A stretch of 64,000 nt of DNA, from assembly GCA_030649835.1 (NCBI GenBank), contig JAUSES010000060.1:6411-70410 (forward strand), written 5' to 3'. The position numbers were made by a program, and so were the translations under genes. Shown here one piece after another: positions 19,747-63,762 of this stretch (positions within the stretch are counted from its first letter, which is position 1; each line of letters begins with the position of its first letter). A model generated the notes under the pieces. It worked only from the letters and a program-made list of their open reading frames with translations. It made no database searches and was not told the origin of the DNA. This DNA is from a bacterium. GTDB lineage: Bacteria > Patescibacteriota > Minisyncoccia > Phycocordibacterales > UBA1550.

Positions 19747-19776
19747 GACCGTCCCCCTCGTGGACGGTTTTTACTT
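19747..19776 (+). terminator. Intrinsic terminator (gaccgtcc...ggacggt + TTTTT).
   Basis: Hairpin plus T-tract about 45 nt after the stop of ORF 18532..19704. Confidence 0.6.
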
Positions 19777-19786
19777 TTGTCATGCT

Positions 19787-19912: not shown

Positions 19913-19938
19913 ACCTACAATATTTTCCAAAGAAAAAA

Positions 19939-19962
19939 GGTTGCCACGAGTGGCAACCTTTT
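19939..19962. terminator. Bidirectional hairpin terminator (ggttgccac-gag-tggcaacc), A/T-flanked.
   Basis: Perfect 9-bp stem, with 'aaaaaa' on the 5' side and 'tttt' on the 3' side. It is 20 nt beyond the stop of the minus-strand ORF 19983..20846. Confidence 0.6.
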
Positions 19963-19982
19963 AAATTAATTCAAATACCTAT

Positions 19983-20846
19983 TTACTTAATTGCCTCCAA
20001 ACAAAATGTTCCTTGTGGAGTACAGCGTTTTGGACCATCGAAGAATTTGAAGGCTACGTCAGGCACAGGATATTTGGTCTCTGTTTCATGAACGATATTG
20101 CCATCAAACATCCTGCCACACACCTCATGCGCTTTTTCGAGCGATCCTTGAATATCTTTGCAGGCATCATATTCAACTTTAAGCGCCGCTAATTTATCGC
20201 TAAAGTCTTTTATCCGCGCCACGAGCCTATTATATTTTTCGAAGTATTTGAGCCCCGCTTGATGTATTGCGTTTGCTTCACGATCGCTTTTTTCACCAAT
20301 CTGATTGAGGGTGTCAATGTTTTTAATCAACCGATCTCGGTTTGTATCGATTTCTCCCTTCCACGAATTTACCTTTTCGACAAGCGGATCTAAACGAGCT
20401 TTCTCGATCTGGCACCAATTGTATCTATTCTGATCAACAGTGCCATGGCAAACTCCATTATAAGAATCCGCTTGACCGTTTACGTTTTTTGCAAAGTCAT
20501 TTTGACTTATAATATTATCCTCATGCTTTGTATTCTCCTGCTCAAATGTAGCCCACGCATTGAAAAGAAGGTCTGCTGTCGCAAGCTGGTGTGCTTGTTT
20601 TCCTTCTAAAACTACGCCTTCTTTGTTTGCGATTTTTAAATCCCGAACAGTGCTACGAATAGAGCCAATATATAAGCTGGCTTTTGCATCCCGCGCGTGG
20701 CCTGTGTTTTCATCTGCTGGCACACCACTTGCCCCGCCCTCTGCGTGCGCAAATGCCGTCAGTGCCATCATTAAAACCAAAGTGATATACGTTTTCATTT
20801 TGAACTCCTTATGTTGAATATCTATTAAACCTACAGGCGAAATCAT
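19983..20846 (-). CDS. Secreted hypothetical protein (signal peptide). The probable start is the Met at 20798.
   Basis: 'MKTYITLVLMMALTAFAHA' is a Sec signal. The rest is Cys-containing and coiled-coil-like. Confidence 0.6.
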   Translation of the reverse strand: MISPVGLIDIQHKEFKMKTYITLVLMMALTAFAHAEGGASGVPADENTGHARDAKASLYIGSIRSTVRDLKIANKEGVVLEGKQAHQLATADLLFNAWATFEQENTKHEDNIISQNDFAKNVNGQADSYNGVCHGTVDQNRYNWCQIEKARLDPLVEKVNSWKGEIDTNRDRLIKNIDTLNQIGEKSDREANAIHQAGLKYFEKYNRLVARIKDFSDKLAALKVEYDACKDIQGSLEKAHEVCGRMFDGNIVHETETKYPVPDVAFKFFDGPKRCTPQGTFCLEAIK

Positions 20847-20889
20847 TTTACTCTGCAGGTATTCCTGACCTCAAAAAAATGATGCAAGT

Positions 20890-21243
20890 TTAATCAATCC
20901 ATATACGCCGTTCATCCAAAAAACATAAATCACTACGCGAAACCAACCTTCTTGCCTCTTCGCAATCAAGCCTTGAGGAAAAAGGGCCGCGAGTAGTGCC
21001 CACCTTGTAATAATAGGAAATAAAGTACCAATCTTCCCTTACTGGTTGAGCTGGTCTCACTTCTTTAAATATTAGTGGTACTGGCTTTTGTGTTTCCACT
21101 ACTACTGGCGCTTTTTCTATACCACATAGGGTGCAGGTGAGATCTGGCTTTAAGGTAAGTGGCAGTGGTGCCTCTGCAAAAGCGCCCGAAGTAATCAGCA
21201 AAGCGAAAAGCGAAACCAGCAACATAGCGCGTATTTTTCTCAT
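20890..21243 (-). CDS. Small secreted protein.
   Basis: Signal peptide 'MLLVSLFALLITSGAFA'. The ORF is 117 aa. Confidence 0.5.
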   Translation of the reverse strand: MRKIRAMLLVSLFALLITSGAFAEAPLPLTLKPDLTCTLCGIEKAPVVVETQKPVPLIFKEVRPAQPVREDWYFISYYYKVGTTRGPFSSRLDCEEARRLVSRSDLCFLDERRIWID

Positions 21244-21424
21244 TTCAATCTCCTTGGTTTGTAAATGTTAAGGTGCTCTGCAGGCAAAACTATTTTGCAC
21301 TGTCTGTCTGATACCATATAGATAATTATGTAGACTGTCAAGCGTACGTCCAGCTAGTGACTAGAATATGTAGAATAAACAGTTCCAAAAACCAAAAGTA
21401 AGGTAGTTGTATTCTTATGTTTAT

Positions 21425-21617
21425 GGTAAAATGAATATATGAATCCCGTTAGAGGTCCCCGCCCACTTTCGCCAGAACACAGCAAAAAGTTGTGCTCAAG
21501 TGATGGCGGGTGGGACTCAGTTTTTTAACCTGAGCCTACGGGAGTCTATATAAAAAGTTTATTTATTTACTAGATAATAATCAGCTACGGAAACGCCTAG
21601 CGTTTCCTACCTCTAAC
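21425..21617. repeat. MITE-like element, copy B, inverted relative to copy A. It abuts the start codon of the first M14 peptidase gene.
   Basis: Terminal inverted repeats 'atcccgttagaggt' (21443) and 'acctctaacgggat' (21603). The internal 85 nt are the exact RC of 6040..6127. 'tttcctacctctaacgggATGAAAAA' precedes this gene and also precedes pyk. Confidence 0.6.
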
Positions 21618-43597: not shown

Positions 43598-43658
43598 CTC
43601 CCTGTGGCAAAGCCACCCACCTAAATTCTAAATTCAAAATTCTATATCCTATTCTTGT

Positions 43659-45632: not shown

Positions 45633-46172
45633 CTAATTTGTAATCTCGCTCCACACCGCAGACGTTACTTCGCCATTGCCCGCGACTCCATTGTCTAAAG
45701 TGACACTGACACTGAGGGACCTTTTGCTTCCTTTCATAATACCTTTTGCTGTAATAATTTTTGGGTCACCAGTAATCCCAGATCCTGCGCTCACAGAAAC
45801 TTTTGCACAGTCGTTATTTAATGCGCATCCATTTGCGCTAAAATCAATAGTATAACAATCAGCGCTAGCGCATGTATAATTTTTGTTACGCGCTATTCGG
45901 ATAAGTGCGTCTCGAGCACCAGCTTCTGCATAAAATTGCGCGCGGGAGGATTGTGCTCCTCCTTGAGATACAAAAAGCTCCGTAAGCGAAAGCGTGGTGA
46001 TGCTCACAGTAACAACAAGCGCGAGCACTCCTAAAATCATCACTGTTGGTAATGTTGCCACTCCACGGGAAAAACGAGGGGGAACGAGGGGGAACGAGGG
46101 GGAACGAAAGAACACAAAAAAGATGCGGTCGCGGTTTGATTTTTTTATGAAATTTTTTTTGTCCATGGTCAT
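45633..46172 (-). CDS. PilX-like / minor pilin-like protein.
   Basis: 'SRG|VATLPTVMILGVLALVVTV' is a prepilin-like hydrophobic N-terminus. The leader is Pro/Ser-rich ('SPSFPLVPPRFSRG') and is encoded by 'gggggaacga' repeats. Confidence 0.5.
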   Translation of the reverse strand: MTMDKKNFIKKSNRDRIFFVFFRSPSFPLVPPRFSRGVATLPTVMILGVLALVVTVSITTLSLTELFVSQGGAQSSRAQFYAEAGARDALIRIARNKNYTCASADCYTIDFSANGCALNNDCAKVSVSAGSGITGDPKIITAKGIMKGSKRSLSVSVTLDNGVAGNGEVTSAVWSEITN

Positions 46173-46208
46173 TTGTTAATTGTTTCCATTGTTCTCGCTG
46201 TTGACCTG

Positions 46209-46790
46209 TTATCTAAGTGTTATGGTTGTTCGCGATGTGTCAGAATATGTCCAGTCAGTACTTGACGCATTATAGCGCATTGTCATTTCAATGAGTACCG
46301 CTGTTGTGGTGGCATTTAGAATAGAATTATAATTTTCAAAACGAGTAAACACGGGCATTTCCGCCCACACGCTACTTCCGTTTATTGGCTCAGGGGTGCC
46401 CGCGTTTACCGTACGGCGAAGTACTCCACCTACAACGTCGTACATAACTATGTTTCCTGAAACAGTAACACTCAAAGTACTCGCAGGTGTTCCAAGGAGT
46501 GGTGTTGTTACGGTCTGTGCGTTTTTAATATCCTGCTTGATAACCTGATTAGCAAAACGTACTGCACTATTGACCTCGCTCCGCGCTTCTGACTGTCCAC
46601 GACCTTTTGCGAGTGAAATGAAGGCATTTGCTACAATCACTACCAACACAGAGAGAATAGCAACGTAAATTAGGAGTTCAAGTAGCGAGACCCCTCTCTG
46701 GGGAGAATGGGGAATGGAGAATGGGGAATTTTCATTCTCTATTTTCTTTTCTCCACTATTCATTCCTATTTTAGATGTTTTGTATTTCAT
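46209..46790 (-). CDS. Prepilin-type N-terminal cleavage/methylation domain protein (minor pilin/pseudopilin).
   Basis: '...SPFSIPHSPQRG|VSLLELLIYVAILSVLVVIV' is a class III signal with Glu at +5. Confidence 0.65.
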   Translation of the reverse strand: MKYKTSKIGMNSGEKKIENENSPFSIPHSPQRGVSLLELLIYVAILSVLVVIVANAFISLAKGRGQSEARSEVNSAVRFANQVIKQDIKNAQTVTTPLLGTPASTLSVTVSGNIVMYDVVGGVLRRTVNAGTPEPINGSSVWAEMPVFTRFENYNSILNATTTAVLIEMTMRYNASSTDWTYSDTSRTTITLR

Positions 46791-46878
46791 ATTTATTGTT
46801 TCCCTTCCCCCATCTGCCCATTCCCTCCCTTTCCCCCTCTCTCCCCATTCACCATTCTCTCTTCCTTTCCCTGTATTT

Positions 46879-48177
46879 TTACGGTGCCCAGTTTACTACC
46901 ACGTCACTCACCTTAGGACTTGCGCCCCCGCTCGCAGTGCAGTCTGCTGAGCAAATTTGTATTCTATAGCGAAAATATCTTTTGTTGTTTTGCGACTGAC
47001 GAGCCGAACAAGCTATTTCAACAGGTTTACCGGGCCCACCACCGAGGCCTGAGGTGCCCGTGTCATACCATGACGAAGTATTGCACGTTGCTCCACCATC
47101 GCTACTGCCATAAAAAGTCCACGGCCCCGTATCACTATCTGAAGTAGCAACTTGAAATTGGACTTTTCCTGTTCCTTCTGTCCCCTTCCACATGATTGAG
47201 TTATACGCTGGACCTTGGTCGGCTCCTACGGTCACAAACGTATCAAGTACAGCCGAGGAGAGCTCTCCCGTAGGAGGAAGTCCTGTACAAACTGCAGGTT
47301 TGTATTTATGAGTTTCTTCCAACTTTATTCCTAATCCATAAATCGTAATATCAGTGGGATTGAAATTGAGCACATGGGGGTAGGATCCTGCTGAGGTTGG
47401 GTTTATTGTATCTACGGGGTCCTTATAGTCGATCTCAAATGGTGTGGGAACACCTCCTGTACTAGGCAGAGTAAACGTTTTTTCGGTAGCAGGAATGTTA
47501 TCGATCATAAAAGTTATTGTTCCGCTAGTGACACTTTCATATACCCCGGACGCAGTAAAGCGAAGCGATTTTATTGCTGGAGTAATTCCTGAAAGATTGT
47601 CTCCAATAAAAAGTGTAAACGGAAACTCTGTATTTACTGAAAGTGGAGCATCTGAATCACCAATCATTGATTCTGTCGTTTTGACCTTAAGGTTAGTTGG
47701 CCAGCCGTCTGCACATGTGGGAGGCACGTATCGGTGAGTTTCTTCCATCTTAATACTCATGCCGTACATAGTAACACCGGAATTTATATCAAACGTATAG
47801 GTATACGAGCCGGGAGTAGAGGGGTTAATTTTGCCTGAGTGATCTTTATAGTTAATCTCAAACGGCGTTGGTGTCCCCCCTACGTTGGGGAGCGTAACTA
47901 TTTTTGAGGTGCCAGAGTCATTGTCTATCATCGCCTCTACGGTGCCAACACCTGTGTAAACACCCGACACAGTGAAGTGGATTGATTTTAGCGGGTTTAC
48001 CACACCCGAAAGATCGTCCCCAATATAGAGCGTGAATAGGTATGACTGCGAGCCTATAAAAGTAGCATCTTCGCTCGCTATAAGTGTCTCTGTGGTTTTG
48101 ACTTGGTCAACGGCGAAAACAGAGTGCGCAATGATTCCAAAGCTGATTATAAAGAGTGTTGTGCGAAATATCTTCAT
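46879..48177 (-). CDS. Secreted protein with a two-fold internal repeat, a possible pilus-associated protein.
   Basis: It has a signal peptide. The units 'TFTLPNVGGTPTPFEINYKDHSG...' and 'TFTLPSTGGVPTPFEIDYKDPVD...' are duplicated. Confidence 0.5.
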   Translation of the reverse strand: MKIFRTTLFIISFGIIAHSVFAVDQVKTTETLIASEDATFIGSQSYLFTLYIGDDLSGVVNPLKSIHFTVSGVYTGVGTVEAMIDNDSGTSKIVTLPNVGGTPTPFEINYKDHSGKINPSTPGSYTYTFDINSGVTMYGMSIKMEETHRYVPPTCADGWPTNLKVKTTESMIGDSDAPLSVNTEFPFTLFIGDNLSGITPAIKSLRFTASGVYESVTSGTITFMIDNIPATEKTFTLPSTGGVPTPFEIDYKDPVDTINPTSAGSYPHVLNFNPTDITIYGLGIKLEETHKYKPAVCTGLPPTGELSSAVLDTFVTVGADQGPAYNSIMWKGTEGTGKVQFQVATSDSDTGPWTFYGSSDGGATCNTSSWYDTGTSGLGGGPGKPVEIACSARQSQNNKRYFRYRIQICSADCTASGGASPKVSDVVVNWAP

Positions 48178-48183
48178 AATAAA

Positions 48184-48852
48184 TTAGCGAACAAGCATAG
48201 TTGTGTTGCCCAGTGAAGTAGAAAGACCATATTGCCAAATTTTTCCATCCTCACTATAGAAAAAAATGAGTGAATTTAATGCTGCATCAGAAAACTGTGA
48301 CAGAGCCTGTATGGAAATAATTGCATCCCTTGAATCATACCAATTCCTAGGAAGAATGTACCCAGTCGATGTAGTTTCAGTTTCCCTTTGTACAGTGATT
48401 GAGTTACCCTGAATAATTATCTCATACCCTTTCTTTTTCAATTTCGATCCAAAAGCAAACTGCCATGCACTACTTTTCCCTTGAAGTGTTACAGTCCCGA
48501 GAGACTTAACAAAGATAAGACTTGCATCATTTGACCATTTTTTTGCATCAACAACCGCTACATCAAAGGCATTTTTCAATGTAAATATAGCGTCTGGAAC
48601 TACAATCTCGTCACCTTTCATCTTTGGGACAAGAGGTACATTGTAACCACTTAATACAAACGTTCGCCCACCACCTACCGTAATCTTTTCGGTTTCTGGG
48701 ACGACAATTTTATCATTAACAACTTTCGGCTTTTCAAAAAAATTCACCGCTTTTTTAAACGAGGGTGATTTGCTCGAGAGAAATTCACCAGTTGCTAAGG
48801 CAACGATGATAATTATGGATGCAATAATAATTTTTATATATTTATTTATCAT
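48184..48852 (-). CDS. Membrane-anchored hypothetical protein.
   Basis: It has an N-terminal TM helix. The ORF is 222 aa. Confidence 0.45.
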   Translation of the reverse strand: MINKYIKIIIASIIIIVALATGEFLSSKSPSFKKAVNFFEKPKVVNDKIVVPETEKITVGGGRTFVLSGYNVPLVPKMKGDEIVVPDAIFTLKNAFDVAVVDAKKWSNDASLIFVKSLGTVTLQGKSSAWQFAFGSKLKKKGYEIIIQGNSITVQRETETTSTGYILPRNWYDSRDAIISIQALSQFSDAALNSLIFFYSEDGKIWQYGLSTSLGNTTMLVR

Positions 48853-48857
48853 ATTTC

Positions 48858-50741
48858 TTATTTAATGCCCACCAACGCTTTAATCTCTTGCCCACTATCA
48901 AGTATCGCCTTAATTTGCCACGTACCCGTGGACATGTTGTCGGTAGAGAGATTATAGTTGTAAAGTTTCTGCCCATCAATTCTGAACTGATTCCCTGTAT
49001 CTGCAACGACAGCAGAAAATGGAATACTATCGCTTCCTATCACATTATTGCTAATCTTTGCAATATAAAGATGTGCAGTTGCTTGCGTAGCAAAATTACC
49101 ATTTGCATCTGAAAGGGCAAATTTCACTGGGAGCGTTCTTCCTAGATTATATACTGCGCTGCCATCAGATTTTATGGGGGGGAGGAAGCCAGTTGTATTA
49201 TAGTTTACAGTAAACGTCTTTGTCAGCGTTGTAACATTACCATTATTGTCTGTTGCAATAATCATAAGAACATTACTGCCAAGCTTGTCTAATGTGACAA
49301 TTTGATTATTGCTGACACTTACACCATTTACAGTTGCAAAAATATTTGCGGTGCCAAAAATATTATCGATGGCCTGAAATTGTATTTCAAGATTAGAATT
49401 TAAAAGATACAGTGAACCAATATCCGAGGTAATAATTTTTATTGGGATAATTCTCTCAATGACACACCCGTTTGTACGAATAATGTAAGATGTATCAGGA
49501 ATATATTTTACCGGTGTATTTTCAGATAACGACACAGTGTTACCGCACACCGTGGTTTTAATTGTGTACACATCATCTGGTTGTGCACCGGACTCAGGAA
49601 CAACTCTAATCGCATAGTCACCACTTTTAAGCTGATCAACTGAAGCTATTTCGTATTCTAAAGTATAGTCTCCATCGGATTCTGTGAGTTCAAAATAATC
49701 TGCGTTTGCTCCAAAATCATTTTGGGTCTTACTTAGTATCAATCCATCTGGATCGGTAATAATTACATCAACGGGGCTATATACTGAAACAGAAAACGCA
49801 GATTTAACGTAATTAAAAAAGAGAAGTGGGTCAAGTGCAGTTGTTAATCGATAGTCCAAATTAACTGGAATATCTCCTTGTCTTACTTCGAAATGAAGAT
49901 GTGGAGCAGTACTCACCCCAGTGGTGCCAACAGTACCAAGAATTTCTCCTTGTTCAACTGGTTTCCCGACATAAGTGCTGGTAGCTATTGTGTCCATATG
50001 TAAATATCTTGTTGATATTTTTTCCGCAATGGTACCATCCTTCCTTGTGACACTTCCATGAGAAACCCATACCCATTTACCGGCGGGGCTATCATTGATA
50101 CTATCTATTCTTACAATCGTTCCCTTCGCCGTGGATTTTACCGGCTTCTGGTTGAGCGTCTTGTCTATATCTATTCCATAATGATTACGAGCGGGATCAA
50201 GTTCCTGTTTGAGAATGCCGCTGTCTGTTGGATTTATCATTTGTGGTGACAATGGCTGGGCTCCAATTGCTATTTTACTAACAGTGTTGGAGCCAGAATT
50301 TGTTACCCAAACCGAATTAGTGACATTGTCGAATGCAATTCCATGAGGGAATACGCCAGTAGAATAATCAACCATGGCTCCTGTATTAATGTTCACCTTA
50401 CTTACAGTATTAATGGAACCGTTTGCTACCCACACAGAATTTGTCACATTGTCAAATGCAACACCCAATAGTCTTCCACGAACATCAAAATCAACTCTAG
50501 CGCCTGTATTAATATCTACTTTGCTTACAGTATTAGAGTAATAATTTGTTACCCACACAGAGTTAGTAACATTGTCAAATGCAACACCCCATGGCTCACT
50601 ACCAACAGGATACTCAACCCTTGTCCCCGCAGGTGGAGCAACTTGCGCGAAGATAGTATTGGTATTAACAAAAACTGAACACACGATGACAATGTTAGCT
50701 ATAACGAATTTAAAAAACTTTTGGGTAAAATATTTTTTCAT
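48858..50741 (-). CDS. M23/LytM-family metallopeptidase carrying three YVTN-type repeats and C-terminal Ig-like domains.
   Basis: There are three repeats of 'AFDNVTNSVWVTN..NTVSKV'. The M23 motifs are 'HYGIDID' and 'GTTGVSTAPHLHFEV'. Confidence 0.8.
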   Translation of the reverse strand: MKKYFTQKFFKFVIANIVIVCSVFVNTNTIFAQVAPPAGTRVEYPVGSEPWGVAFDNVTNSVWVTNYYSNTVSKVDINTGARVDFDVRGRLLGVAFDNVTNSVWVANGSINTVSKVNINTGAMVDYSTGVFPHGIAFDNVTNSVWVTNSGSNTVSKIAIGAQPLSPQMINPTDSGILKQELDPARNHYGIDIDKTLNQKPVKSTAKGTIVRIDSINDSPAGKWVWVSHGSVTRKDGTIAEKISTRYLHMDTIATSTYVGKPVEQGEILGTVGTTGVSTAPHLHFEVRQGDIPVNLDYRLTTALDPLLFFNYVKSAFSVSVYSPVDVIITDPDGLILSKTQNDFGANADYFELTESDGDYTLEYEIASVDQLKSGDYAIRVVPESGAQPDDVYTIKTTVCGNTVSLSENTPVKYIPDTSYIIRTNGCVIERIIPIKIITSDIGSLYLLNSNLEIQFQAIDNIFGTANIFATVNGVSVSNNQIVTLDKLGSNVLMIIATDNNGNVTTLTKTFTVNYNTTGFLPPIKSDGSAVYNLGRTLPVKFALSDANGNFATQATAHLYIAKISNNVIGSDSIPFSAVVADTGNQFRIDGQKLYNYNLSTDNMSTGTWQIKAILDSGQEIKALVGIK

Positions 50742-50756
50742 AGATTTTTTATTAAT

Positions 50757-53700
50757 TTACGGCGTATATGAATACGTCATAACAAGGGATGCGGAATTAA
50801 CGTATAGCGTTGTTGCGGCATCAGGTCTAACAGTAAATGTGTTTTGTGTTACTGTGTTTACTGTATTAACTTTGCGAATTATTTTGAAATAATTTCTGAA
50901 CGTACCAGACGGACCTCCCGGCAAAACATAGGTAACCGGCGATTCAGATTCATACTGAACAGTGACTGATGAATTTGTAGGTGAGACATTAGTGGTCTCA
51001 TAAATACCAGTAAGAGTAATGAACGAACTTTTAGCAGTAATGTTCGCCTCCGTTGTTGTAGCATAAAACTGATATATACCGGGGCTTGCGTTTGTTACAG
51101 GACTTGTTCCTCCTGCAACATAAAATTTTGTCGTCTTTGCGGGATTGTTTACGGTTGCTGTTAAGAATGTACTTATTCCGCTTACGGTTTCATTGCCTGC
51201 GGCATCCATGGAACGCACACGATAAGAATAAGTTGTGCCAGAGTTCAGATTTGAAAGAGCGATGCTGTGTAAATTCACTCTCGTCGGTAATACATCTGTG
51301 AGTGCGGTACATTCTGTCGTTCCTGCGCAATTGTACCCACCAGCGAACATACCACCGATGTTATACTCAATTCGACTAGTTGATACCTCGTCAGTAGTAT
51401 CCCATGTGATGGTTGCGCTGTTGCTACCTGGTAGTCCCGACGAAATATTTGTTACTGGAGGAGCGGTTGTGTCAATCTGGAAATCGGTCGAAGTTTCTGG
51501 AGATGCAGAATCAAACGATACCCAACTGCTATAATAATCCGATCCACTTTTATTATACCTCACGCGTGCTTGCCAGTGGTAAATATCGCCAGGTGGTGTT
51601 GATGTGGTTAAAAGATTAATAGTCCCGCCTCCATATGCTGTGCCAGTGCCCTCAAAACAATATGAATTCGCAGAACATGTTGAAGTAAAGTTTCTATTGG
51701 TTCCAAGAACAGGGCGCACCTCCACCTGTGAGTACATTGTTCCACCAGTTATAGCAGAAGATGTATCAAGAGTGTAACGAACCGGCGTTGAGGAAGCGGT
51801 TCCTCCAATAGAAATGGTGGCAAGACTAGCATCTCTTTGGGTAAGGTTTAGCGGATTATCTGGTACTAGCGAGAGAAGTGAAAAAATTACCGCATTTGAC
51901 TTATATATATTTGATGTTATAACCACGTTGCCAGACATGGCACTGGTGGGAACCTGTGTATTTACAGCTGTATCAGTCCATCCACCAATTCCCCACACCG
52001 TTGATGTCGCATACGAGTTAAAAACAATAACATTGTCGATTATACCAAAAGCTAGGGGGCACGTTCCACCTTGGCACAAATGATTGCCGGTTATCGTTAT
52101 GGGGTCTCCAACACTTGCAGATGGAGGAGAAATGATGCGTGGGAAAACACGGAAATTTGTCATTGTATAGGAATGCATTTTGTTGTTTGATCCTAACCCT
52201 TGTTTCATAATAAGACTTCCTGTGTTTATTGTGTCATCAATAACTGGTGGGACTTGCACTTGAATGAGCTCGTTCCCCCATGAATCAACATTCACCGTGC
52301 CAGTTGGAGAGGCACATGTTGTCACATCGCACCCCAAAATACGCACATATCCACCAGTTACGGCAGTACCAAACCTTGTACCATTTAATCTGACCTGCCC
52401 ATCTTTAAGGCCGTTTAAACATACGGAATCGGTGCCGTCGTGTTCGCGTCCGCCATCACCAACAGGAAATTCCGCTTTATTACACATTGTGAGAGAAATC
52501 ACTTGTGGAAATATGTAGAAATCAAGCCCTCCGCTTGCTGCCCCGCCAGCTGTTACTGCCAGAGCACCTACCCCTCCAAATTCGGAGCCCCAATCCGTAT
52601 CCGTGTCTCCAACATTTAATGTGTCAGTCTGAAAAGTAATCGATGTAGACGACCATGTGATTACATTTGCATCAGTAATCTGATGCGTTCCAATTTTTAT
52701 GTTGTCACTTATTGTAGAACAATTACCCGTACCACATGTGCGTACTCCAAAACCAAACCCCGTAATTACAACAGATTGCTTAAAGCCTACACCTCCTCCG
52801 ATACGCGCGCCACAACCAGTCCCTGCACAATTTGAATAGTCAAGTGCTGGCTCAGTGCTGTTGGTATAGCTTGTAATTTTTGGTTTTACTGTAGTGGTGC
52901 CAGCAAGAGACACGGGTGCGCCAGATTTAGCAGACAGTGCAGAGGTTACAACATCGGCAGGGAGGGCAATTTGAAAATTGATAGTCTCCCCTCCCTTGGG
53001 GTCACTTGCGCCATTTATCATATCTGCTCGAACATAAAAATAATATGTTGTTCCCGCCACAAGCGCGAGTGAGCCCGATACCGTCGCTGCTTCTGAAGTC
53101 AAGGACGCGACTGTCGTCCCGTACTGCCCTGTCACTCCATTTGCAAAATTGCCATCAGTGTCATAAAAGACCGCGAGGTTTGAAAGATTATTTGTCGCAT
53201 TGGTCGTTCCTGTTTCAGTGATTTTTGTAGAAGTAAGTGTCTCTCCCGCAGATGACACGAGAGTAAATGCGGAACAGGAAGCAGGGCTATTACAAGTCAC
53301 ATCATTTGCATACTGTGCGGTTGATCCAGAGTTCAGGCTTGCTACTTTATTGCCTGAGGTCGCACCAATGGCTAAGGTAAGGGGCGGTTTAAGGGCTATC
53401 GTCATCCTCGCTTGAATAGATGAGTTGAGGAGAGTTGCGGTACTGTTGCCCGTTGCTCCTGTGGTGAGTCTTGGCCCCACTGCTACGCCGAACCCTCCCC
53501 CACGTCCGGCATTTGTGTTAGCGTCGGCATTGAGTACCTCAGTCAAACTTGAAAGACCCCCGTTCGCCCATCCAGATGTCTGCGGAGTATTGTTTACATC
53601 TGTGTCATTTGCAACCACCGCAACCACGAGTGTTTCTGTGGATGTGGTAGTAACTCCCGGTATAGTCACTGCAGTTGATGCTGTTGCTAAAATGTCTCCC

Positions 53701-54173
53701 GCCGTCACATCCCACGGGTTCCCCGTAGCAATAACTCCTCTAAACGCGATGATCTGTGCAAACTGATGGTCTCCCGAGTCGGAAGTGGTTGGTGCGCCTT
53801 GTGTGCCATTGTACCTACTCCAAAATACGGTGAGTCGCGTTGCCCCTGCAATACCCGCAGTACCGGTGCCTTGTGGTGAATTCGTTACCTGCGCCCACAC
53901 ACCTCCGTTTGGTGTTGGGATGGTGATGGCCTGATTTGCGGTCTCAACAAAAAGAAGCAGGATGTCGTCCACCGCGAGCCCTGCTGGAAGAGGTGGTGTA
54001 ACTGCGGTTATTGCAGAGGCTTTTGCCCCCGCCGCAACGAGGGTGGGGGTAGCAGCATGTGCGTTGTTTATTTCAAAAAATGATGTTACTCCGGAAAAAC
54101 CAAAAAATAAGGCAACAGCAAAGACTGTAAAAATCCTAGAAAGCGTATTGAAAATAGTTCTCTTTTTTTTCAT
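50757..54173 (-). CDS. Very large secreted Thr/Gly/Ser-rich beta-repeat protein with a C-terminal FN3-like domain, a candidate pilus-associated adhesin.
   Basis: 1138 aa with a signal peptide. The composition is T/G/S/N-rich. 'TTYSYRVRSMDAAGNET' is FN3-like. Confidence 0.55.
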   Translation of the reverse strand: MKKKRTIFNTLSRIFTVFAVALFFGFSGVTSFFEINNAHAATPTLVAAGAKASAITAVTPPLPAGLAVDDILLLFVETANQAITIPTPNGGVWAQVTNSPQGTGTAGIAGATRLTVFWSRYNGTQGAPTTSDSGDHQFAQIIAFRGVIATGNPWDVTAGDILATASTAVTIPGVTTTSTETLVVAVVANDTDVNNTPQTSGWANGGLSSLTEVLNADANTNAGRGGGFGVAVGPRLTTGATGNSTATLLNSSIQARMTIALKPPLTLAIGATSGNKVASLNSGSTAQYANDVTCNSPASCSAFTLVSSAGETLTSTKITETGTTNATNNLSNLAVFYDTDGNFANGVTGQYGTTVASLTSEAATVSGSLALVAGTTYYFYVRADMINGASDPKGGETINFQIALPADVVTSALSAKSGAPVSLAGTTTVKPKITSYTNSTEPALDYSNCAGTGCGARIGGGVGFKQSVVITGFGFGVRTCGTGNCSTISDNIKIGTHQITDANVITWSSTSITFQTDTLNVGDTDTDWGSEFGGVGALAVTAGGAASGGLDFYIFPQVISLTMCNKAEFPVGDGGREHDGTDSVCLNGLKDGQVRLNGTRFGTAVTGGYVRILGCDVTTCASPTGTVNVDSWGNELIQVQVPPVIDDTINTGSLIMKQGLGSNNKMHSYTMTNFRVFPRIISPPSASVGDPITITGNHLCQGGTCPLAFGIIDNVIVFNSYATSTVWGIGGWTDTAVNTQVPTSAMSGNVVITSNIYKSNAVIFSLLSLVPDNPLNLTQRDASLATISIGGTASSTPVRYTLDTSSAITGGTMYSQVEVRPVLGTNRNFTSTCSANSYCFEGTGTAYGGGTINLLTTSTPPGDIYHWQARVRYNKSGSDYYSSWVSFDSASPETSTDFQIDTTAPPVTNISSGLPGSNSATITWDTTDEVSTSRIEYNIGGMFAGGYNCAGTTECTALTDVLPTRVNLHSIALSNLNSGTTYSYRVRSMDAAGNETVSGISTFLTATVNNPAKTTKFYVAGGTSPVTNASPGIYQFYATTTEANITAKSSFITLTGIYETTNVSPTNSSVTVQYESESPVTYVLPGGPSGTFRNYFKIIRKVNTVNTVTQNTFTVRPDAATTLYVNSASLVMTYSYTP

Positions 54174-54221
54174 TTAGTATGCTCCAAAACTACAAATAGT
54201 ATACCACACCAACTAAATTGT

Positions 54222-54890
54222 TTAACTCTGAAGTTCTAGTGTTGTACCACTCGTATTTATGTTTCCGTCCTGCGCTTCATACGTGTTGTTAGAGCAGGTT
54301 TTTACACCCGTTGCCACACCACCTGACCAATCAGCTTGATTACAAATCTTATTCTTCCACCGAAATAAATAATTATTTATCGTAAGAGGGCTCCCCGCGC
54401 CCTGCCACGAAACCACCACGGACACCTTCTGTGTACTCGGGTCATTAAAATAATTATTTACTGGTGTACAGATAGTACTGCTTGCGATACTTCTACTACT
54501 ATCATTGCACCTGCTTACATTGTCTACAATAAAATACCGCGTGTAACTCGCATTGTTAAGCAAGATTGTCTCATCACCAGATGTAACGGTTAGGAGGCCA
54601 CTAGAGGGTGCCGTTTTATAATGTGTGATTCCCTTCCCTGTTAGGTTATAGATATTCTGCCACTTTTCATCGGCTACTGCGCGCACCGCTTCCAGTGTTT
54701 CATTTGCAAGGCCCATCGCTACGTCATTTTCACCAGAGGTTTTTCCACTTTGCATGCTTACATACACTGCCTGAGAACCAATAGACAAAATAATCGCAAG
54801 GATGGATATCGCCACAAGTAGCTCCAAAAGAAGAGCTCCACGAACGAGGGAGTAACGAGGGATGGGGAATGGGGAATGTTTATTTCTCAT
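54222..54890 (-). CDS. Pseudopilin / minor pilin (prepilin-type N-terminus).
   Basis: 'MRNKHSPFPIPRYSLVRG|ALLLELLVAISILAIIL' has an 18-aa leader that ends in Gly, with Glu at +5. Confidence 0.7.
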   Translation of the reverse strand: MRNKHSPFPIPRYSLVRGALLLELLVAISILAIILSIGSQAVYVSMQSGKTSGENDVAMGLANETLEAVRAVADEKWQNIYNLTGKGITHYKTAPSSGLLTVTSGDETILLNNASYTRYFIVDNVSRCNDSSRSIASSTICTPVNNYFNDPSTQKVSVVVSWQGAGSPLTINNYLFRWKNKICNQADWSGGVATGVKTCSNNTYEAQDGNINTSGTTLELQS

Positions 54891-54891
54891 G

Positions 54892-55515
54892 CTAGTTTAT
54901 TGTACCGATACTTGAAATGGTTATGGTCTCCATTGTGTTCCCTGACAAGATGCTAATTGTGGTTGAAGTTGTCGTGCCGGAAATTCTCGAAAAAATAATA
55001 TCCTTACTCGTTCCTGCGCTCGGGTCAGAAAACGTCACTCCACTTGAAAGTGTTGTTGTTCCTGTTATTGTTCCTCCTGCATACCCGGTAGCTGTTGAAA
55101 AAATCTCATAGTAGTGGGGCCCGCCGTTTGTGTTAACTACGTGCACTCCCCACTTTAGTTCCGCCTCCCCCGACATAGATTTAGAGCGCATATGCTTTAA
55201 ATCACTGGCAATTGCTCTCGAAACGGACTGAACTTCTATCTTCGTTACAGCGCCATGATAAAAACCCGATCCCGCAGCTCCTAAAATAGCTACAATAGCA
55301 ACAACAATAAGGAGCTCCAAGAGGCTAAAACCACGGGGGGAACGAGTGGGAACGAGTGGGAACGAGGGGGAACGAGAATGCACATTTGGGACAGAGAGAA
55401 CAGTGGGGACAGAAACGCACAGTCGCTCCGTGACTGTGCGTTTCTTTTGTCCCCCGGTTCTTACCGTTCCCCTTGTGTATTTTTCGTTCCCCCCGTTGTT
55501 GTTCTTTATAATCAT
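54892..55515 (-). CDS. Pseudopilin / minor pilin. The likely true start is the in-frame GTG at 55383, giving the leader MHSRSPSFPLVPTRSPRG.
   Basis: 'RSPRG|FSLLELLIVVAIVAILGAAG'. The 5' part of the annotated ORF lies inside a palindromic G-rich repeat. Confidence 0.7.
   Translation of the reverse strand: MIIKNNNGGNEKYTRGTVRTGGQKKRTVTERLCVSVPTVLSVPNVHSRSPSFPLVPTRSPRGFSLLELLIVVAIVAILGAAGSGFYHGAVTKIEVQSVSRAIASDLKHMRSKSMSGEAELKWGVHVVNTNGGPHYYEIFSTATGYAGGTITGTTTLSSGVTFSDPSAGTSKDIIFSRISGTTTSTTISILSGNTMETITISSIGTIN
55322..55510. repeat. Imperfect palindromic repeat element. It has 'gggaacgag' tandem repeats, a central hairpin (gaaacgcacagtc..gactgtgcgtttc) and 'cgttcccc' repeats.
   Basis: Left arm 'ggggggaacgagtgggaacgagtgggaacgagggggaacgag'. 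Centre hairpin at 55412..55444. The right arm is the approximate reverse complement. Confidence 0.55.
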
Positions 55516-55517
55516 GA

Positions 55518-55904
55518 TTATTTTTTTGGAGTCCGTAAAATCGAATTACGAAAAGAGATTAGTTGATGAGCAAGAAACTCCGCATTTTTAAGCAATTCAT
55601 TGTGTTCATCTATGGAAAAATACTTACTATCAAAAGCAACATCGAAGCAAGCAACAACCTCGTTAAGCGAAGTATGTGCTATGTTCAAAAAATGAGCAAA
55701 ATCCTTATCTGTCCCTCTGTCAGCCCCCTCTGCAATATTAAGCAATACAGAATCGAGTGCACGACATAATTGCTGTTGTAAAGAAAATTGTTCACGTTTA
55801 GGAAATTTTGCATAGGATATCTTTTTTGCAGAGGAAATAAAAGCTCGCACATCTGCGTATACAGGAAATTCTCGGAACCTAAATATTCTATGCGTGTTTG
55901 TCAT
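55518..55904 (-). CDS. Four-helix-bundle protein (23S rRNA intervening-sequence protein family).
   Basis: 'LNIAEGADR...FAHFLNIAHTSLNEV' matches the family signature. Confidence 0.75.
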   Translation of the reverse strand: MTNTHRIFRFREFPVYADVRAFISSAKKISYAKFPKREQFSLQQQLCRALDSVLLNIAEGADRGTDKDFAHFLNIAHTSLNEVVACFDVAFDSKYFSIDEHNELLKNAEFLAHQLISFRNSILRTPKK

Positions 55905-55924
55905 TTTTTATAGTATCCTAACTC

Positions 55925-56035
55925 TTTAGTCCTTTATGTTCTATCGTTCCCCCTCCTTCCCCTTGTGGGTTACTGTCCCAAGTGTGCATTTCTGTTCCCC
56001 CTGTTCCCCTCGTCCCAAACGTTCCTTCCCTCCCC
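55925..56035. repeat. Half-copy (C-rich arm) of the same palindromic repeat family.
   Basis: Its reverse complement reads 'ggggaacagggggaacagaaatgcacacttgggacag', which matches 59860..59925. Confidence 0.5.
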
Positions 56036-57253
56036 CTATGTAAAATGTCCTACAAGCTGATAAATAGGAAGGATAATAGAAACAGCAATGGATCCAACAA
56101 GGAGGCCCATAATGAGCAGGAGTGCAGGCTCCAGAACTGCAGTGAGGTCCTTGAGCTTGTTGTCCACATCTTCTTCGTAAAAATCTGAAAATGTAATCAG
56201 GATTTCAGATAGTGTACCTGTGCGCTCCCCTACTACAGAGAGACTCACAAGAAGTCGTGGAAAAAGTTCCGGAAACTTTAGGAGCGCATCTGAAATAGAA
56301 ATTCCATTTTTTACATCATCAACAACAGCAGAGATCGCTCTCTGATAGTTAAGGTTTCCCACAGAATCTCCTGCAGACTGGAGAGAATCCACGGCAGAAA
56401 GCCCACTTGACATCAGGTTGCCAAGTGTGCGGGTAAACCTCACCAAGGCAATCTTTCTTACCAACTCATTTGCAACAGGCGTATGTGAAATAACCCAGAA
56501 AAAAACCTTCTTACCTGTTCGTGTTGTCCTAAAATAGATAAAAAACCATACAATAAATGCGAAGGCAAAAATATCAAGGAAAAAATTATAGGTAAGAGCG
56601 TTTGAAATAGCGAGAAAAAACTTTGTGAACCATGGGAGCGCAACGCCACTTGAAGCGAATGCTTTCGTGAGCTTTGGAAGAACAAAAATAAGAAGGAGGG
56701 AAACAACACCAAGTGAGGCAACGAGCAAAATAACTGGGTAGGTTAATGCAGATTTGACTCTTGCGCGTAGTGCATATTCCTTTGAAAGATATTTACCGAG
56801 CTCAGCAAAGGTACGATCAAGCTGACCCGATGCCTCGCCCGAACGAAGCATCCCTAAAAATACTGGAGGAAATGACTCTGCGTAATTTTCAAATCCCATA
56901 GAAAGTGGCTGTCCGTTTTTTACGATTGCCTGAATCTCTTGCAACATATTCTTTACCACTTTTTTTTCTGTATCTTGTATAAGGATGTCTAGCGCCTCTA
57001 CTACAGACAGTCCTGCTTTAATTGTCGCGGACAAGTTGCGTACCAGAAACAAAATATCCACTGAGTTAATTTTTTCAAAAAGGGACATGGAGAGGTTTAT
57101 CCCCTTTTTCCCTCCACCGAGGAGCTTTACTGTTATGGGAGTAAGATCGCGTCGAAGTAGGTACCCCACAGCCTCATCACGTGTGTCCGCCTCGTACTCC
57201 CCGCGCACAATCGCTCCGTCACGGTTATATGTTTCGTAAAGATATATTGCCAT
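56036..57253 (-). CDS. pilC: Type IV pilus assembly platform protein PilC (GspF family).
   Basis: 405 aa with two T2SF repeats and 3 TM helices. Confidence 0.9.
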   Translation of the reverse strand: MAIYLYETYNRDGAIVRGEYEADTRDEAVGYLLRRDLTPITVKLLGGGKKGINLSMSLFEKINSVDILFLVRNLSATIKAGLSVVEALDILIQDTEKKVVKNMLQEIQAIVKNGQPLSMGFENYAESFPPVFLGMLRSGEASGQLDRTFAELGKYLSKEYALRARVKSALTYPVILLVASLGVVSLLLIFVLPKLTKAFASSGVALPWFTKFFLAISNALTYNFFLDIFAFAFIVWFFIYFRTTRTGKKVFFWVISHTPVANELVRKIALVRFTRTLGNLMSSGLSAVDSLQSAGDSVGNLNYQRAISAVVDDVKNGISISDALLKFPELFPRLLVSLSVVGERTGTLSEILITFSDFYEEDVDNKLKDLTAVLEPALLLIMGLLVGSIAVSIILPIYQLVGHFT

Positions 57254-58977: not shown

Positions 58978-59118
58978 AAATAGTATACTCCTGAGCCTTA
59001 CTTTTTCATAGTATATACTATGAAAAAGTAAGGCTCAGGAGTATAAGGAGATTTTAATATGCAAAACAAAAGCGCCTCGCGGCGCTTTTGTTTTGTGAAC
59101 TACTAATCGAGAGATTGA

Positions 59119-59658
59119 CTAGAGTGCTAGATTTGTTCCCACCTCATAGCGAGTGTCGTCAGTTCCGCCATCCGTTGCATTTAACATACGTGGGCTATAT
59201 TCAGAACTTTCAAGTACTGCGCTAACCTCAAAGGTTTTAGCAGTATTGTTACACTTATAAGCGTATCCCATTGCGCCGCTGTTTACTGGATCAACAGGAA
59301 GACTTGAGATTGGAGATCCACTTGTAAGGGAGTTAAGATTGATTGGTAACCAACCCGTTCCGTCTGTAAGCACGCTTAGGGTCGTTGTGCTACTGCTCCA
59401 TGGAGCACAAGCGACATCTGTATTCCCATTCATCCATGGTGTAGATGTACTTGTAAGGTAGAGTCCAAGCGCAGTCTTGATAGTATTCAAATCAGAAATA
59501 CGCTGAGTGTCGCGAGATTTCTTCAGAGTTTCCGCTGGGTTCAAGATGAGCACGAGTGCGACTGATAAAATTGCGATGATCGAAATAACGATCAAAAGTT
59601 CAAGGAGAGTAAAGCCCTTTGCGTGACCTGCTCCTTTTTTCATATTCATTGAAATCAT
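59119..59658 (-). CDS. pilA: Type IVa major pilin (PilA-like).
   Basis: 'MKKGAGHAKG|FTLLELLIVISIIAILSVALV' is a class III signal. The size is pilin-like and there are C-terminal Cys residues. Confidence 0.85.
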   Translation of the reverse strand: MISMNMKKGAGHAKGFTLLELLIVISIIAILSVALVLILNPAETLKKSRDTQRISDLNTIKTALGLYLTSTSTPWMNGNTDVACAPWSSSTTTLSVLTDGTGWLPINLNSLTSGSPISSLPVDPVNSGAMGYAYKCNNTAKTFEVSAVLESSEYSPRMLNATDGGTDDTRYEVGTNLAL

Positions 59659-59710: not shown

Positions 59711-60015
59711 GGAAAAGGAAATAGGGCTGTGGATAACTCGGAAGGGGGAACGGGGGTGCACAGGGGGAACGTTTGGGACAATGGCCCACAAGGGGAACGC
59801 GTGGGGACTTGGGAGGGGCACACACGGGACAGGAACCCACAAGGGGAACGAGGACTCACTGAGGGAACAGGGATACACATTGGGGACAGGGGGAACGGAA
59901 ATGCACACTTGGGACGGGGGGAACAAATAACGCACAGTCGCGTAGCGTCTGTGCGTTATTCGTTCCCCCTGTTCCCCCTGTCCCAAGTGTGCCCCTCCCA
60001 AGTTCCCTCTGTTCT
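59711..60015. repeat. Large imperfect palindrome of about 300 nt built from 'ggggaacg'-cored repeats with about 27-nt period, then a central hairpin (59926..59960), then the C-rich mirror arm. It sits upstream of pilA.
   Basis: 'gggggaacg' recurs at least seven times at roughly regular spacing. The centre is 'aataacgcacagtcgcgtagcgtctgtgcgttatt'. The mirror arm is 'cgttccccctgttccccctgtccc...'. Confidence 0.6.
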
Positions 60016-60022
60016 CGCGTTG

Positions 60023-60397
60023 CTACGCGAGATACCCCTTTACCTTATCTATAATCTCCTGTATTGGGTAGTCCACCTTTACCAGATATTCCTTTGCGCC
60101 AAGTGCGAGCGCGCGGTCCTGGTCCACCTGTTGCCCTAGGTTCGAAAGAACGACGACAGGAATATTGGCAATATCAGGGTTTTTTTGAAGGTCTTCAAGT
60201 ACGCTAAATCCATCCTTTTTGGGGAGCATGATATCAAGGAGAATGAGATCTGGTCTTTCACTAATAATTTTTGGAATCGCTTCCTCCCCACTACGCACAA
60301 GACACGAGGCTATCCCCTCTTTGGCAAACTTAATTTCATACACCTTTGAAATATGCTCATCGTCCTCCACTATTAAAACTTTTTTCATGATGTCCAT
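60023..60397 (-). CDS. Single-domain response regulator (CheY-like receiver).
   Basis: 'VLIVEDDE', 'LILLDIMLP' and 'VVVLSN...K' are receiver motifs. Confidence 0.85.
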   Translation of the reverse strand: MDIMKKVLIVEDDEHISKVYEIKFAKEGIASCLVRSGEEAIPKIISERPDLILLDIMLPKKDGFSVLEDLQKNPDIANIPVVVLSNLGQQVDQDRALALGAKEYLVKVDYPIQEIIDKVKGYLA

Positions 60398-60403
60398 AAA
60401 ATA

Positions 60404-60787
60404 TTATGCGTAACTCAGCATCTTGTCTGCAAGTGTATTAATATCGTAGTCGCTTTTTACCAAATAATCAACAACGCCAAGTTCAAGTGCAGTACCTTTT
60501 GATTCTTCTCCCCCCGAGACGGAGCAAATAGCTACCTTCAAATCCCTATACTCTTCATTTTTGCGAACCTTCTCAAGAAACTCTATTCCATTCATCCCAG
60601 GAAGAAGGAGGTCGAGCCACACAATATCTATATGAGGATGCTCAGAATCAAGCACACGAAGTGCGTCCTCCGCGCGCATTGTTGATATAACGCGATGACC
60701 CTTTTGCTCAAGTTTAAGCACAATAGCGTGATTGAGCGCAATATCGTCTTCTAGGAGAAGGACTGTCTTTGGAAATTGTTCATTCAT
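60404..60787 (-). CDS. Single-domain response regulator (CheY-like receiver).
   Basis: 'VLLLEDDIAL', 'IVWLDLLLPGMNG' and 'VAICS' are receiver motifs. Confidence 0.85.
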   Translation of the reverse strand: MNEQFPKTVLLLEDDIALNHAIVLKLEQKGHRVISTMRAEDALRVLDSEHPHIDIVWLDLLLPGMNGIEFLEKVRKNEEYRDLKVAICSVSGGEESKGTALELGVVDYLVKSDYDINTLADKMLSYA

Positions 60788-60860
60788 ATTCTGAAATTAC
60801 TTTAACTATAGTAACATTCCTATCGCGTTATGCAACCTTGTAGTGAACCCCCACACCTAC

Positions 60861-61118
60861 TTATCTATTGCAGACATTCAGCGACACGTTTTTAAGCTGA
60901 GAAAGCGCGCGACCATCTCTCTTAAGCGACGCTTCTCTTTTGCGAGCATCGCTCTCACTTATATATGCTTCATAATATCTAATTTCAAATGGTCGCCTAC
61001 TCATTGTAGATTGTACTTTACCAGAATTATGGTCTGCAAGTCTGCGTCGTAAATCATTAGTAGAACCGATGTACAAAAGTTCATCTTTTCGACTTTTTAG
61101 TACATATAGGTAATACAT
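60861..61118 (-). CDS. GIY-YIG nuclease-domain protein (small, stand-alone).
   Basis: 'YYLYVLKSRKDELLYIGSTNDLRRRLADH' matches the GIY-YIG signature. Confidence 0.8.
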   Translation of the reverse strand: MYYLYVLKSRKDELLYIGSTNDLRRRLADHNSGKVQSTMSRRPFEIRYYEAYISESDARKREASLKRDGRALSQLKNVSLNVCNR

Positions 61119-61121
61119 TTT

Positions 61122-63566: not shown

Positions 63567-63762
63567 TTAGTTAGAATGTAGGATATGGAATTTAGAATTT
63601 AGGAACAGGGCTGGTGGGCCTTCGGCAACTAGCCTCCACACTCCATTTTATTGTAGCATGCGTTTCTGAAACTTGATATACTTAAATGATAGGATTTAGT
63701 AGATAGAAATTTGAATATAGGAAAATCAGATTCAGGATCCTAAATTCTATATTCTATATTCC

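Follow-up and report, generated by a model that had tools for sequence, protein, structure and literature searches.

A type IV pilus locus in a 64,000-nucleotide stretch of a patescibacterial genome (assembly GCA_030649835.1, contig JAUSES010000060.1, positions 6,411 to 70,410; Phycocordibacterales, UBA1550; the whole stretch is called the window below) raises a simple question: why do the same short G-rich/C-rich repeats recur at its gene junctions, and why are they read as protein at the start of its minor pilins? A first-pass annotation of this DNA had suggested that the repeats drive recombination among minor-pilin 5' ends or specify a dedicated leader recognised by a particular prepilin peptidase, a functional interpretation that our analysis found to be mostly wrong. 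We favour another answer, with a probability of roughly 0.65: the repeats are the inverted arms of a family of hairpin cassettes, similar to the intervening sequences (IVSs) of ribosomal RNA (rRNA), that colonised the gene junctions of the pilus locus. So understood, the element is a small selfish hairpin related to the intervening sequences that split rRNA; it is classed as IVS-like, not as an IVS, because it does not lie in rRNA, and no rRNA gene is present in the window. Comparison of the window with related loci shows that the arms are complementary, bracket either a gene of the IVP family or a short hairpin, start at stop codons, end at start codons and turn over between strains, and that the right arm supplies the codons of prepilin leaders.

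The repeat family and its copies in the window

The repeat units are 7 nt and 10 nt long, G-rich on one strand and C-rich on the other, and cluster in the pilus locus, which lies on the minus strand. The consensus GGGGAAYGRG is matched 38 times with at most one mismatch, versus 8.1 ± 2.8 times in shuffled sequence, and 38 matches were reached in none of 100 shuffles; the arrays listed in the first-pass annotation are indeed present and exceed chance. The matches gather at 46.07, 46.70-46.85, 54.86, 55.33-55.49, 55.94-56.01 and 59.74-59.98 kb. Tandem 10-nt units occur at 46073-46107 (AACGAGGGGG, 3.5 copies) and 55338-55376 (GGGAACGAGT, 3.9 copies), and the 7-nt unit GAATGGG is repeated at 46705-46729 and 54862-54878. 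The elements and the genes around them are as follows, in the direction of transcription of the pilus locus, with the prepilin cleavage site marked here and below by a slash.

60023-60787, minus strand: two response regulators, receiver-only, without a DNA-binding domain
60023-60397, minus strand: the response-regulator gene directly upstream of element E1
59740-60010, minus strand: E1, the largest palindrome, between the stop of 60023-60397 and the major pilin promoter, with a central hairpin at 59929-59957
59119-59658, minus strand: major pilin gene, with the ordinary leader MISMNMKKGAGHAKG/FTLLELL and matches to PF07963 and TIGR02532
57259-58977, minus strand: pilB
56036-57253, minus strand: pilC (T2SSF), with arm E3 starting directly after its stop codon
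55925-56035, minus strand: E3, a left (5') arm, G-rich in gene sense, after the pilC stop and before the IVP gene
55518-55904, minus strand: 23S_rRNA_IVP/four-helix-bundle (S23p family) gene, matching PF05635 (E 5.6e-25) and TIGR02436 (4.7e-24), with a weak Avd match
55443-55510, minus strand: E2, inner left arm
55414-55442, minus strand: E2, perfect central hairpin, AACGCACAGTC...GACTGTGCGTT
55322-55412, minus strand: E2, right arm, four 10-nt units TCGTTCCCMC plus the module GTCCCAAATGTGCAT
54892-55383 from GTG, or to ATG 55515, minus strand: minor pilin 1 (GspH/ComGD-like)
54222-54890, minus strand: minor pilin 2
54843-54885, minus strand: solo right-type array of CATTCCC units in the pilin 2 leader (54837-54890), mirror arm absent
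46692-46878, minus strand: E5, a GGGGAATGG variant, left arm 46795-46878, right arm 46692-46730
46209-46790, minus strand: minor pilin 3, with a TIGR02532 match
46062-46115, minus strand: E6, a solo right-type array, 3.5 copies of TCGTTCCCCC, 94% identical to the pilin 1 arm
45633-46172, minus strand: pilin-like open reading frame (ORF) without Glu+5, with only a weak TadE-like match
4434-4470, minus strand: solo left-type arm GGGAATATTTGAGACAGGGGGAACAAATAAC; it separates the stop codon of pyruvate kinase from the start (ATG) of a DUF167 gene

The copies resemble each other beyond their simple units. Positions 55341-55375 and 46073-46107 are 94% identical, 59886-59915 is complementary to 56004-55975 at 97%, the central hairpins of E1 and E2 are 90% alike, and complex modules such as GTCCCAARTGTGCAT and the E2 hairpin are common to the window copies at 89-97% identity. 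Because complex modules are shared at this level, we regard the window arrays as copies of one element and not as independent microsatellites. The left arm of E5, like that of E3, starts directly after a stop codon (gene 46879-48177), and the pilin 2 array lacks a mirror arm because its gap to the upstream gene is 1 nt. Two of the stretches previously described as mirror arrays (54843-54885 and 46070-46125) are each a single arm, and the range given for the family, 46070-56035, does hold copies but is too narrow, since others lie at 59740-60010 and 4434-4470. The solo arm beside pyruvate kinase and DUF167 means that the family is not restricted to pilin genes.

The cassette around the IVP gene reads, from the pilC stop onwards, arm E3, IVP gene, inner arm, central hairpin, right arm and Gly-1 of minor pilin 1. 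In a fold of the 723 nt between pilC stop and pilin 1, E3 pairs with the arm that encodes the pilin leader, and the loop so formed contains both the IVP gene and the inner hairpin (z -7.5); the duplex of E3 with the leader arm (55322-55412) alone reaches -113 kcal/mol (z -8.7). Among the window copies, only this E3-E2 cassette holds an IVP ORF. E1, the inner E2 palindrome and E5 have no ORF, and such ORF-less copies, with only a short perfect hairpin in the loop, are miniatures of the element. The gene-sense RNA folds of E1 (59735-60025; -133.4 kcal/mol, z -8.9) and inner E2 (55318-55517; -84 kcal/mol, z -7.2) are strong. A search against Rfam at E up to 1 gave chance matches to long-hairpin miRNA models only and no known RNA family, and a scan with consensus promoters and terminators gave the same counts as shuffled sequence.

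Around these elements, a conserved TGGTATAAT promoter lies upstream of the major pilin gene, and between the blocks of minor pilins 2 and 3 are encoded a 1138-aa surface protein, an M23/NHL protein and two unknown proteins. A 123-nt tandem repeat (50265-50611), with copies 70-80% identical, is coding and lies inside the M23 peptidase/NHL-repeat gene. A perfect 62-nt palindrome with TATACT in each end (58984-59045) sits directly upstream of the pilB ATG, 3' of the major pilin's terminator-like hairpin.

Prepilin leaders encoded by the arrays

Pfam and NCBIfam models recognise a prepilin in only two of the four minor genes; the motif G/(F/A/V)xLLELL is present in three minor pilins and in the major pilin, and TIGR02532 or PF07963 matches three of those. 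In minor pilin 1, no in-frame start codon lies between GTG 55383 and Gly-1 (55332-55330), and the right arm of E2 encodes this GTG (55383-55381) together with all 17 further leader codons to Gly-1, giving MHSRSPSFPLVPTRSPRG/FSLLELL. Pilin 1 therefore probably starts at GTG 55383, even if gene callers place its start at ATG 55515 and read through the whole palindrome. The leader and mature start of pilin 2 are MRNKHSPFPIPRYSLVRG/ALLLELL (54837-54890), those of pilin 3, encoded by the right arm of E5, ...NSPFSIPHSPQRG/VSLLELL, and those of the pilin-like ORF ...FFRSPSFPLVPPRFSRG/VATLPTV, with E6 encoding (M)FFRSPSFPLVPPRFSRG/. All canonical in-frame starts of the four minor genes lie in or upstream of the C-rich array, so the arrays are translated if the four minor proteins are made. 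In this respect the earlier description of the C-rich arms as unusually long, Pro/Ser-rich prepilin leaders agrees with the start-codon positions in four genes, as does its remark that the major pilin has a plain leader. The wider statement that the gene-proximal arm always encodes the pilin signal holds for the four pilin-like genes but not for the half copy at 55925-56035, which adjoins no pilin. When the palindromes were tested for open frames, all three frames were open in the G/C-rich window copy; the pilin frame is necessarily open anyway.

What is conserved in these leaders becomes apparent from the orthologues of pilin 1, the nearest of which outside this organism is ~65% identical. 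Among 135 orthologues with a recognisable cleavage motif, the leader is at most 10 aa long in 74 (typically M-x-T-S-R-G/) and at least 16 aa in 51, and the only conserved positions are Gly-1 (130/135) and Arg/Lys-2 (105/135). Within clusters of at least 90% identity the mature pilin is near-constant, and it is preceded by MKNSRG/, MKTQRG/, MKFPIPHSPFPILISSRG/, ...SCHMSKVKCFQKG/ or ...SAVSCHMSKVKCFQKG/. In 22 of 53 long leaders the best self-match falls at exactly 7 aa, the pattern expected of a 7-nt DNA repeat read in three frames; the long leaders read as translated units, HSPFPIP from CATTCCC, VKCQMSN from GTCAAAT and HSTFNIQ from CATTCAA. For the same reason the similarity of the four window leaders is automatic, since a 7-nt or 10-nt repeat gives the same cyclic peptide in any frame. 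Leader variation at constant mature pilin, together with this frame-independence, rules out a dedicated leader and shows that the leader peptide arises as a side product of the DNA element and is not a selected signal. The proposal of a leader read by a particular peptidase thus fails: near-identical mature pilins carry unrelated leaders, and only Gly-1 and Arg/Lys-2 are kept.

IVP cassettes and element turnover in related loci

The proteins of the window have their nearest relatives in Yonathbacteria, Nomurabacteria and Paceibacteria. In related loci (numbered with the prefix L), IVP genes lie between pilB and pilC or between pilC and a pilin, and their flanks follow one plan: the upstream stop is followed at once by the left array, the right array comes shortly ahead of the next ATG, and both are made of that genome's own unit family. 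Each of the 12 IVP cassettes tested had complementary flanks (RNAduplex z -2.8 to -8.9); for 11 of them, none of 200 shuffles was as good. These cassettes (the window, L005, L011, L028, L030, L032, L045 with two, L046, L049, L051 and L054) come from about ten lineages, including Uhrbacteria, Peregrinibacteria, Azambacteria and Yonathbacteria; a further one, L027, has the same flanking arrays by eye and was scored solely in the strand comparison described below. Four IVP homologues picked solely on the length of the surrounding contig all gave the same picture. One of them, L046 (Uhrbacteria), belongs to a glycosyltransferase/asparagine-synthase operon, which shows that the cassette is not confined to pilus genes. 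The other three lie directly upstream of pilins, and their right array overlaps the leader (MPKVKSQISTVNCQMSKVKCANG/FSLVELL, MNFLSNITCQTSHVKCGLRG/FSLFELI). The IVP ATG is preceded in relatives by the heptamers TGACAAT, TGACATG, TGACTTT and TGACAAT, and in the window by irregular GGGGAAC units spaced at 9-10 nt.

The junction between pilC and the pilin allows loci with and without the element to be compared. Where it is absent, the junction reads TAA GT ATG AAA AAT TCT CGC GGA TTT, with next to no spacer, and short-gap loci have no arrays. Where the gap is at least 90 nt, 11 of 11 loci have a left array right after the pilC stop; the right array mirrors it and extends to (R/K)G/, and the loop often contains a perfect central hairpin. 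The unit families at this junction are unrelated (GAATGTT/CGATATT, CAATTGA/GTCAAAT, TGGGGAA/TTCCCCA, CGAGCTA, AATTCCA, GGTTATC); in every lineage the arms match each other, and the unit sequence is wholly different between lineages. Among loci whose mature pilins are at least 90% identical, L003 has no element, L002 has a TTCCCCA-type element and L005 and L008 have GTCAAAT-type elements. L005 carries GCAGATTTTCGCgaaGCGAAAATCTGC upstream of both pilB and the pilin, and L008 a compensatory version of the L005 module, ACAGA...TCTGT. The pilin 2 orthologue of L045 has MRN, four CAATATT units and KRG/ at the same place, and L045 also has an element related to E1 at the E1 position. In the same genomes the element also occurs upstream of pilB and pilC, where it is untranslated and contains an in-frame TAA, so the arrays are not intrinsically coding. 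Altogether, the shared junction plan, the covariation of the arms, the turnover and the untranslated copies point to the palindrome as the unit of evolution, with leader coding secondary.

As read from these comparisons, strain differences are the turnover of an inserted palindromic element. The earlier idea of recombination at the repeats was right in so far as strains differ exactly at these sites, by presence or absence or by replacement with another array family, but no exchange among pilin genes was found. The only other assembly of the organism (Logan SRR13727527, L001) is 100% identical to the window over 14.8 kb, and an indel search among the related loci L005, L006 and L007 versus L008 and L009 (near-identical or 92% identical) found no changes in unit number. 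A scan of GTDB genomes gave, among the matches listed, few relevant loci, mostly with short leaders.

In L005, an ORF-less palindrome upstream of a pilin resembles an IVP cassette through the IVP start codon and ~25 nt beyond (4259-4345 and 5962-6040), in low-complexity sequence. This resemblance suggests an origin of the ORF-less miniatures by internal deletion, with MQEKQLT..., where the long leader begins, as the old IVP start. Further small genes bracketed by perfect palindromes occur in the pilus loci of L002, L003 and L045, among them a PaaX_M-like gene flanked by 40-nt palindromes and Y1_Tnp genes flanked by CCCATAGGAATTGCCTATGGG, with NYN and PemK genes between pilins; small cassettes in general seem to collect in the pilus locus.

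The window holds other mobile or repeated features. An 85-aa GIY-YIG-like ORF (60861-61118) between response-regulator and histidine-kinase genes is flanked by 34-nt inverted repeats, which makes the unit (60835-61163) one more small selfish cassette. The two halves of a perfect 86-nt inverted repeat (6048-6133 and 21439-21524) enclose ~15 kb, probably an integrated mobile element (6048-21524), in which lie tRNA-Asn (6312-6386), a large serine recombinase (6372-8129), an AAA_25 protein, a subtilase and an AAA ATPase. AT-rich heptamer arrays (CCTAAATTCTAAATTC...) directly precede three starts, at 43621-43644 (ABC transporter), 63571-63602 (histidine kinase) and 63740-63761 (the gene starting at 63770), those at 43.6 kb and 63.6 kb being reverse complements of each other.

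Alternative readings, meaning and known systems

How could such a cassette come to supply the start of a pilin? Because a prepilin leader needs hardly more than a start codon, a basic residue and Gly-1, and is cut off by the prepilin peptidase, a cassette arm can replace the 5' end of a pilin gene. The arm is then translated as a long, odd leader. In the putative polycistronic pilus transcript the arms may pair and bury the pilin start codon. A Shine-Dalgarno-like motif of even 4 nt occurs within 20 nt upstream of only 9 of 55 predicted window genes, the upstream regions being A/T-rich, so that initiation probably depends above all on whether the start codon is accessible. If the stem behaves like that of an rRNA intervening sequence, RNase III would cut it, and we infer from this analogy that processing of the stems could divide the operon mRNA at the junctions, so that each pilin cistron would have a stability and translation of its own.

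Several observations weigh against the hairpin cassette as we describe it. Folding energies and G-U counts of sense and antisense strands, compared to tell selection on RNA from selection on DNA, are mixed and give no G-U signature in the sense strand, with 2 cassettes better in sense and 9 in antisense, and a palindrome at the DNA level without an RNA role fits equally well. Some junction hairpins are no stabler than shuffles, namely E5 (gene-sense fold of 46690-46885, weak at z -2.05) and those of L033, L035 and L038 (z -0.2 to -1.3). A nearby mirror arm is lacking for two of the window's four leader arrays and for several pilin 2 orthologues, so a hairpin accounts for only part of the arrays. 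The analysis turned up no target-site duplication, no transposase and no other means of mobility. No gene for PilD, RNase III, RAYT or reverse transcriptase was seen in a non-exhaustive scan of ~40 window ORFs, and rnc was sought only within part of the window. Enrichment in pilus loci is partly due to how the loci were sampled. Finally, the elements may for the most part be neutral passengers, kept at prepilin genes because a leader that is cleaved off tolerates them.

Other explanations make the repeats instruments of variation. If slipped-strand pairing added or removed one 7-nt or 10-nt unit, the resulting frameshift would turn a minor pilin off or on, as in Neisseria opa (CTCTT) or pilC (poly-G). 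The unit lengths, not multiples of three, and their place within leader codons between start codon and cleavage site suit such phase variation, the heptamer copy number of the Coxiella IVS differs between strains (PMC4990558), and the surface pili of an episymbiont would be plausible on/off targets. We consider it unlikely all the same: arrays hold 2-4 copies, far fewer than typical contingency loci, no difference in unit number was seen among L005-L009 or between the two assemblies of this organism, the same arrays stand untranslated before pilB and pilC, and the GTCAAAT arrays, with an ATG in every frame, would act as a buffer and not as a switch. The first-pass idea that shared arms drive exchange, deletion or cassette shuffling among minor pilin 5' ends we judge no more probable than phase variation. 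It can point to the 94% identical 35-nt direct repeats (46073-46107 and 55341-55375) in two leaders 9.2 kb apart, to the leader/arm region of relatives, the breakpoint at which the conserved mature pilin gives way to variable upstream sequence, and to the module CGATTTATAATAGAGYATATGAAATTCCCCATTCC common to pilin 1 of L002 and pilin 2 of L008; yet the repeats are short, the window has no silent pilin copies, no chimeric pilins or exchanges of mature parts were found, and the variation observed is presence, absence or replacement of the element itself.

A role as binding arrays, the inverted repeats being operators for a regulator linked, for example, to the adjacent two-component system, is distinctly unlikely, despite a 10-nt spacing equal to the helical repeat, -10-like boxes in some loops and the position of E1 between response-regulator genes and the major-pilin promoter, here and in L045. 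The period is mostly 7 nt, the adjacent response regulators lack a DNA-binding domain, IVP genes in unrelated operons are flanked as well, and the units are wholly different between close strains, in which regulators would be conserved. The G-tracts could instead form G-quadruplex DNA or RNA that drives pilin variation or blocks transcription, like the pilE G-quadruplex of Neisseria gonorrhoeae. All five canonical motifs of the 64-kb window do fall inside the repeat elements (46802-46846, 55335-55370, 59744-59828 and 59965-60007; shuffle mean 0.19), one of them upstream of the major pilin. However, the corresponding elements of other lineages, being AT-rich (GTCAAAT, TTCAATA, CGATATT), lack G-quadruplex potential, the G-richness follows from this genome's unit sequence, and repeated pilin segments that could act as silent donors are absent from the window, all of which makes this very improbable. 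Scarcely credible, lastly, is the Pro/Ser-rich peptide as a selected signal for a particular prepilin peptidase or targeting factor. In its favour are the similar Pro/Ser/Phe-rich leaders in four genes of one locus; against it stand not only the frame-independent peptide and the orthologues with near-identical mature parts and short canonical or unrelated-array leaders, but also the upstream mirror arm, non-coding and equally conserved, and the absence of a prepilin peptidase gene from the window ORFs scanned.

The IVS-like cassette might also have acquired a use. In that case the IVP cassette and the ORF-less hairpins would form a working regulatory module of Patescibacteria pilus operons, in which the stems, perhaps with the pentameric four-helix-bundle IVP protein or RNase III, gate minor-pilin translation, and in which unit slippage or arm replacement gives heritable switching of tip composition and thus of host attachment by these episymbionts; we regard this as doubtful.

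The IVS-like cassettes matter beyond this locus in several ways. They explain the recurrent prepilins of the Candidate Phyla Radiation (CPR)/Patescibacteria with 20-60-aa leaders of bizarre composition and show how their starts should be called. They extend the S23p/IVP intervening-sequence element from rRNA genes to mRNA operons, with arms that are arrays of 7-10-nt units and with ORF-less miniatures. They offer a case of exaptation in which a selfish hairpin element donates coding sequence, a cleaved signal peptide being among the few sites where insertion costs nothing. If the stems are RNase III sites, they would also set the ratio of pilin to machinery in organisms without Shine-Dalgarno-based control.

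In the literature we found no description of mirrored arrays, ORF-less operon derivatives or an arm used as signal-peptide codons, and several known systems share part of this architecture. The Correia or NEMIS elements of Neisseria are short palindromic insertions in intergenic regions, as the cassettes are; they are co-transcribed with their neighbours, form hairpins cut by RNase III and can donate promoter elements. They differ from the cassettes in their defined 26-bp terminal repeats and TA target duplication, have no ORF and no known signal-peptide codons, and show no sequence similarity to them. REP, BIME and REPIN sequences are likewise dispersed imperfect palindromes just after stops inside operons, and REPINs form long hairpins, whereas our cassettes have tandem arrays for arms and carry IVP, in place of RAYT, as cargo; neither Y1_Tnp nor RAYT was found among the window ORFs scanned, which were not all of them, and the Y1_Tnp genes of L002 are flanked by the different palindrome CCCATAGGAATTGCCTATGGG and not by arrays. 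With Neisseria opa and pilC the cassettes have in common short repeats, not multiples of three, in the leader-coding part of surface-protein genes, but here there are only 2-4 units, a mirror arm, untranslated copies as well and no observed length variation. Cyanobacterial short tandemly repeated repetitive sequences are intergenic tandem heptamers of unknown function and in that resemble the arrays; their arrays are long and have not been described as mirrored pairs around a gene or as leader-coding.

The closest likeness is to the ORF-bearing IVSs of 23S rRNA in Coxiella, Leptospira and others, which carry the same ORF family (PF05635/TIGR02436) in the loop of a long stem formed by flanking inverted repeats. 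The 23S IVS of Coxiella burnetii has been described as selfish, with terminal inverted repeats forming a stem that is cut by RNase III and an S23p ORF in the loop, and has tandem GACAGAT heptamers of strain-variable copy number directly before the ORF (PMC4990558); GACAnnT-type heptamers stand at the same place, directly 5' of the IVP ORF, in the CPR relatives of our cassette. Both also share the sporadic distribution of a selfish element and the existence of ORF-less versions. Earlier studies reported IVP ORFs inside insertions in CPR rRNA (10.1101/2024.02.27.582315) and, in cas operons, at positions between the genes (PMC3936711). The cassettes described here depart from the 23S IVSs in that every copy is found at a junction of protein-coding genes, none in helix 25 or 45 of 23S rRNA, in that both arms are arrays of units, and in that the 3' arm overlaps the next gene and supplies its coding sequence.

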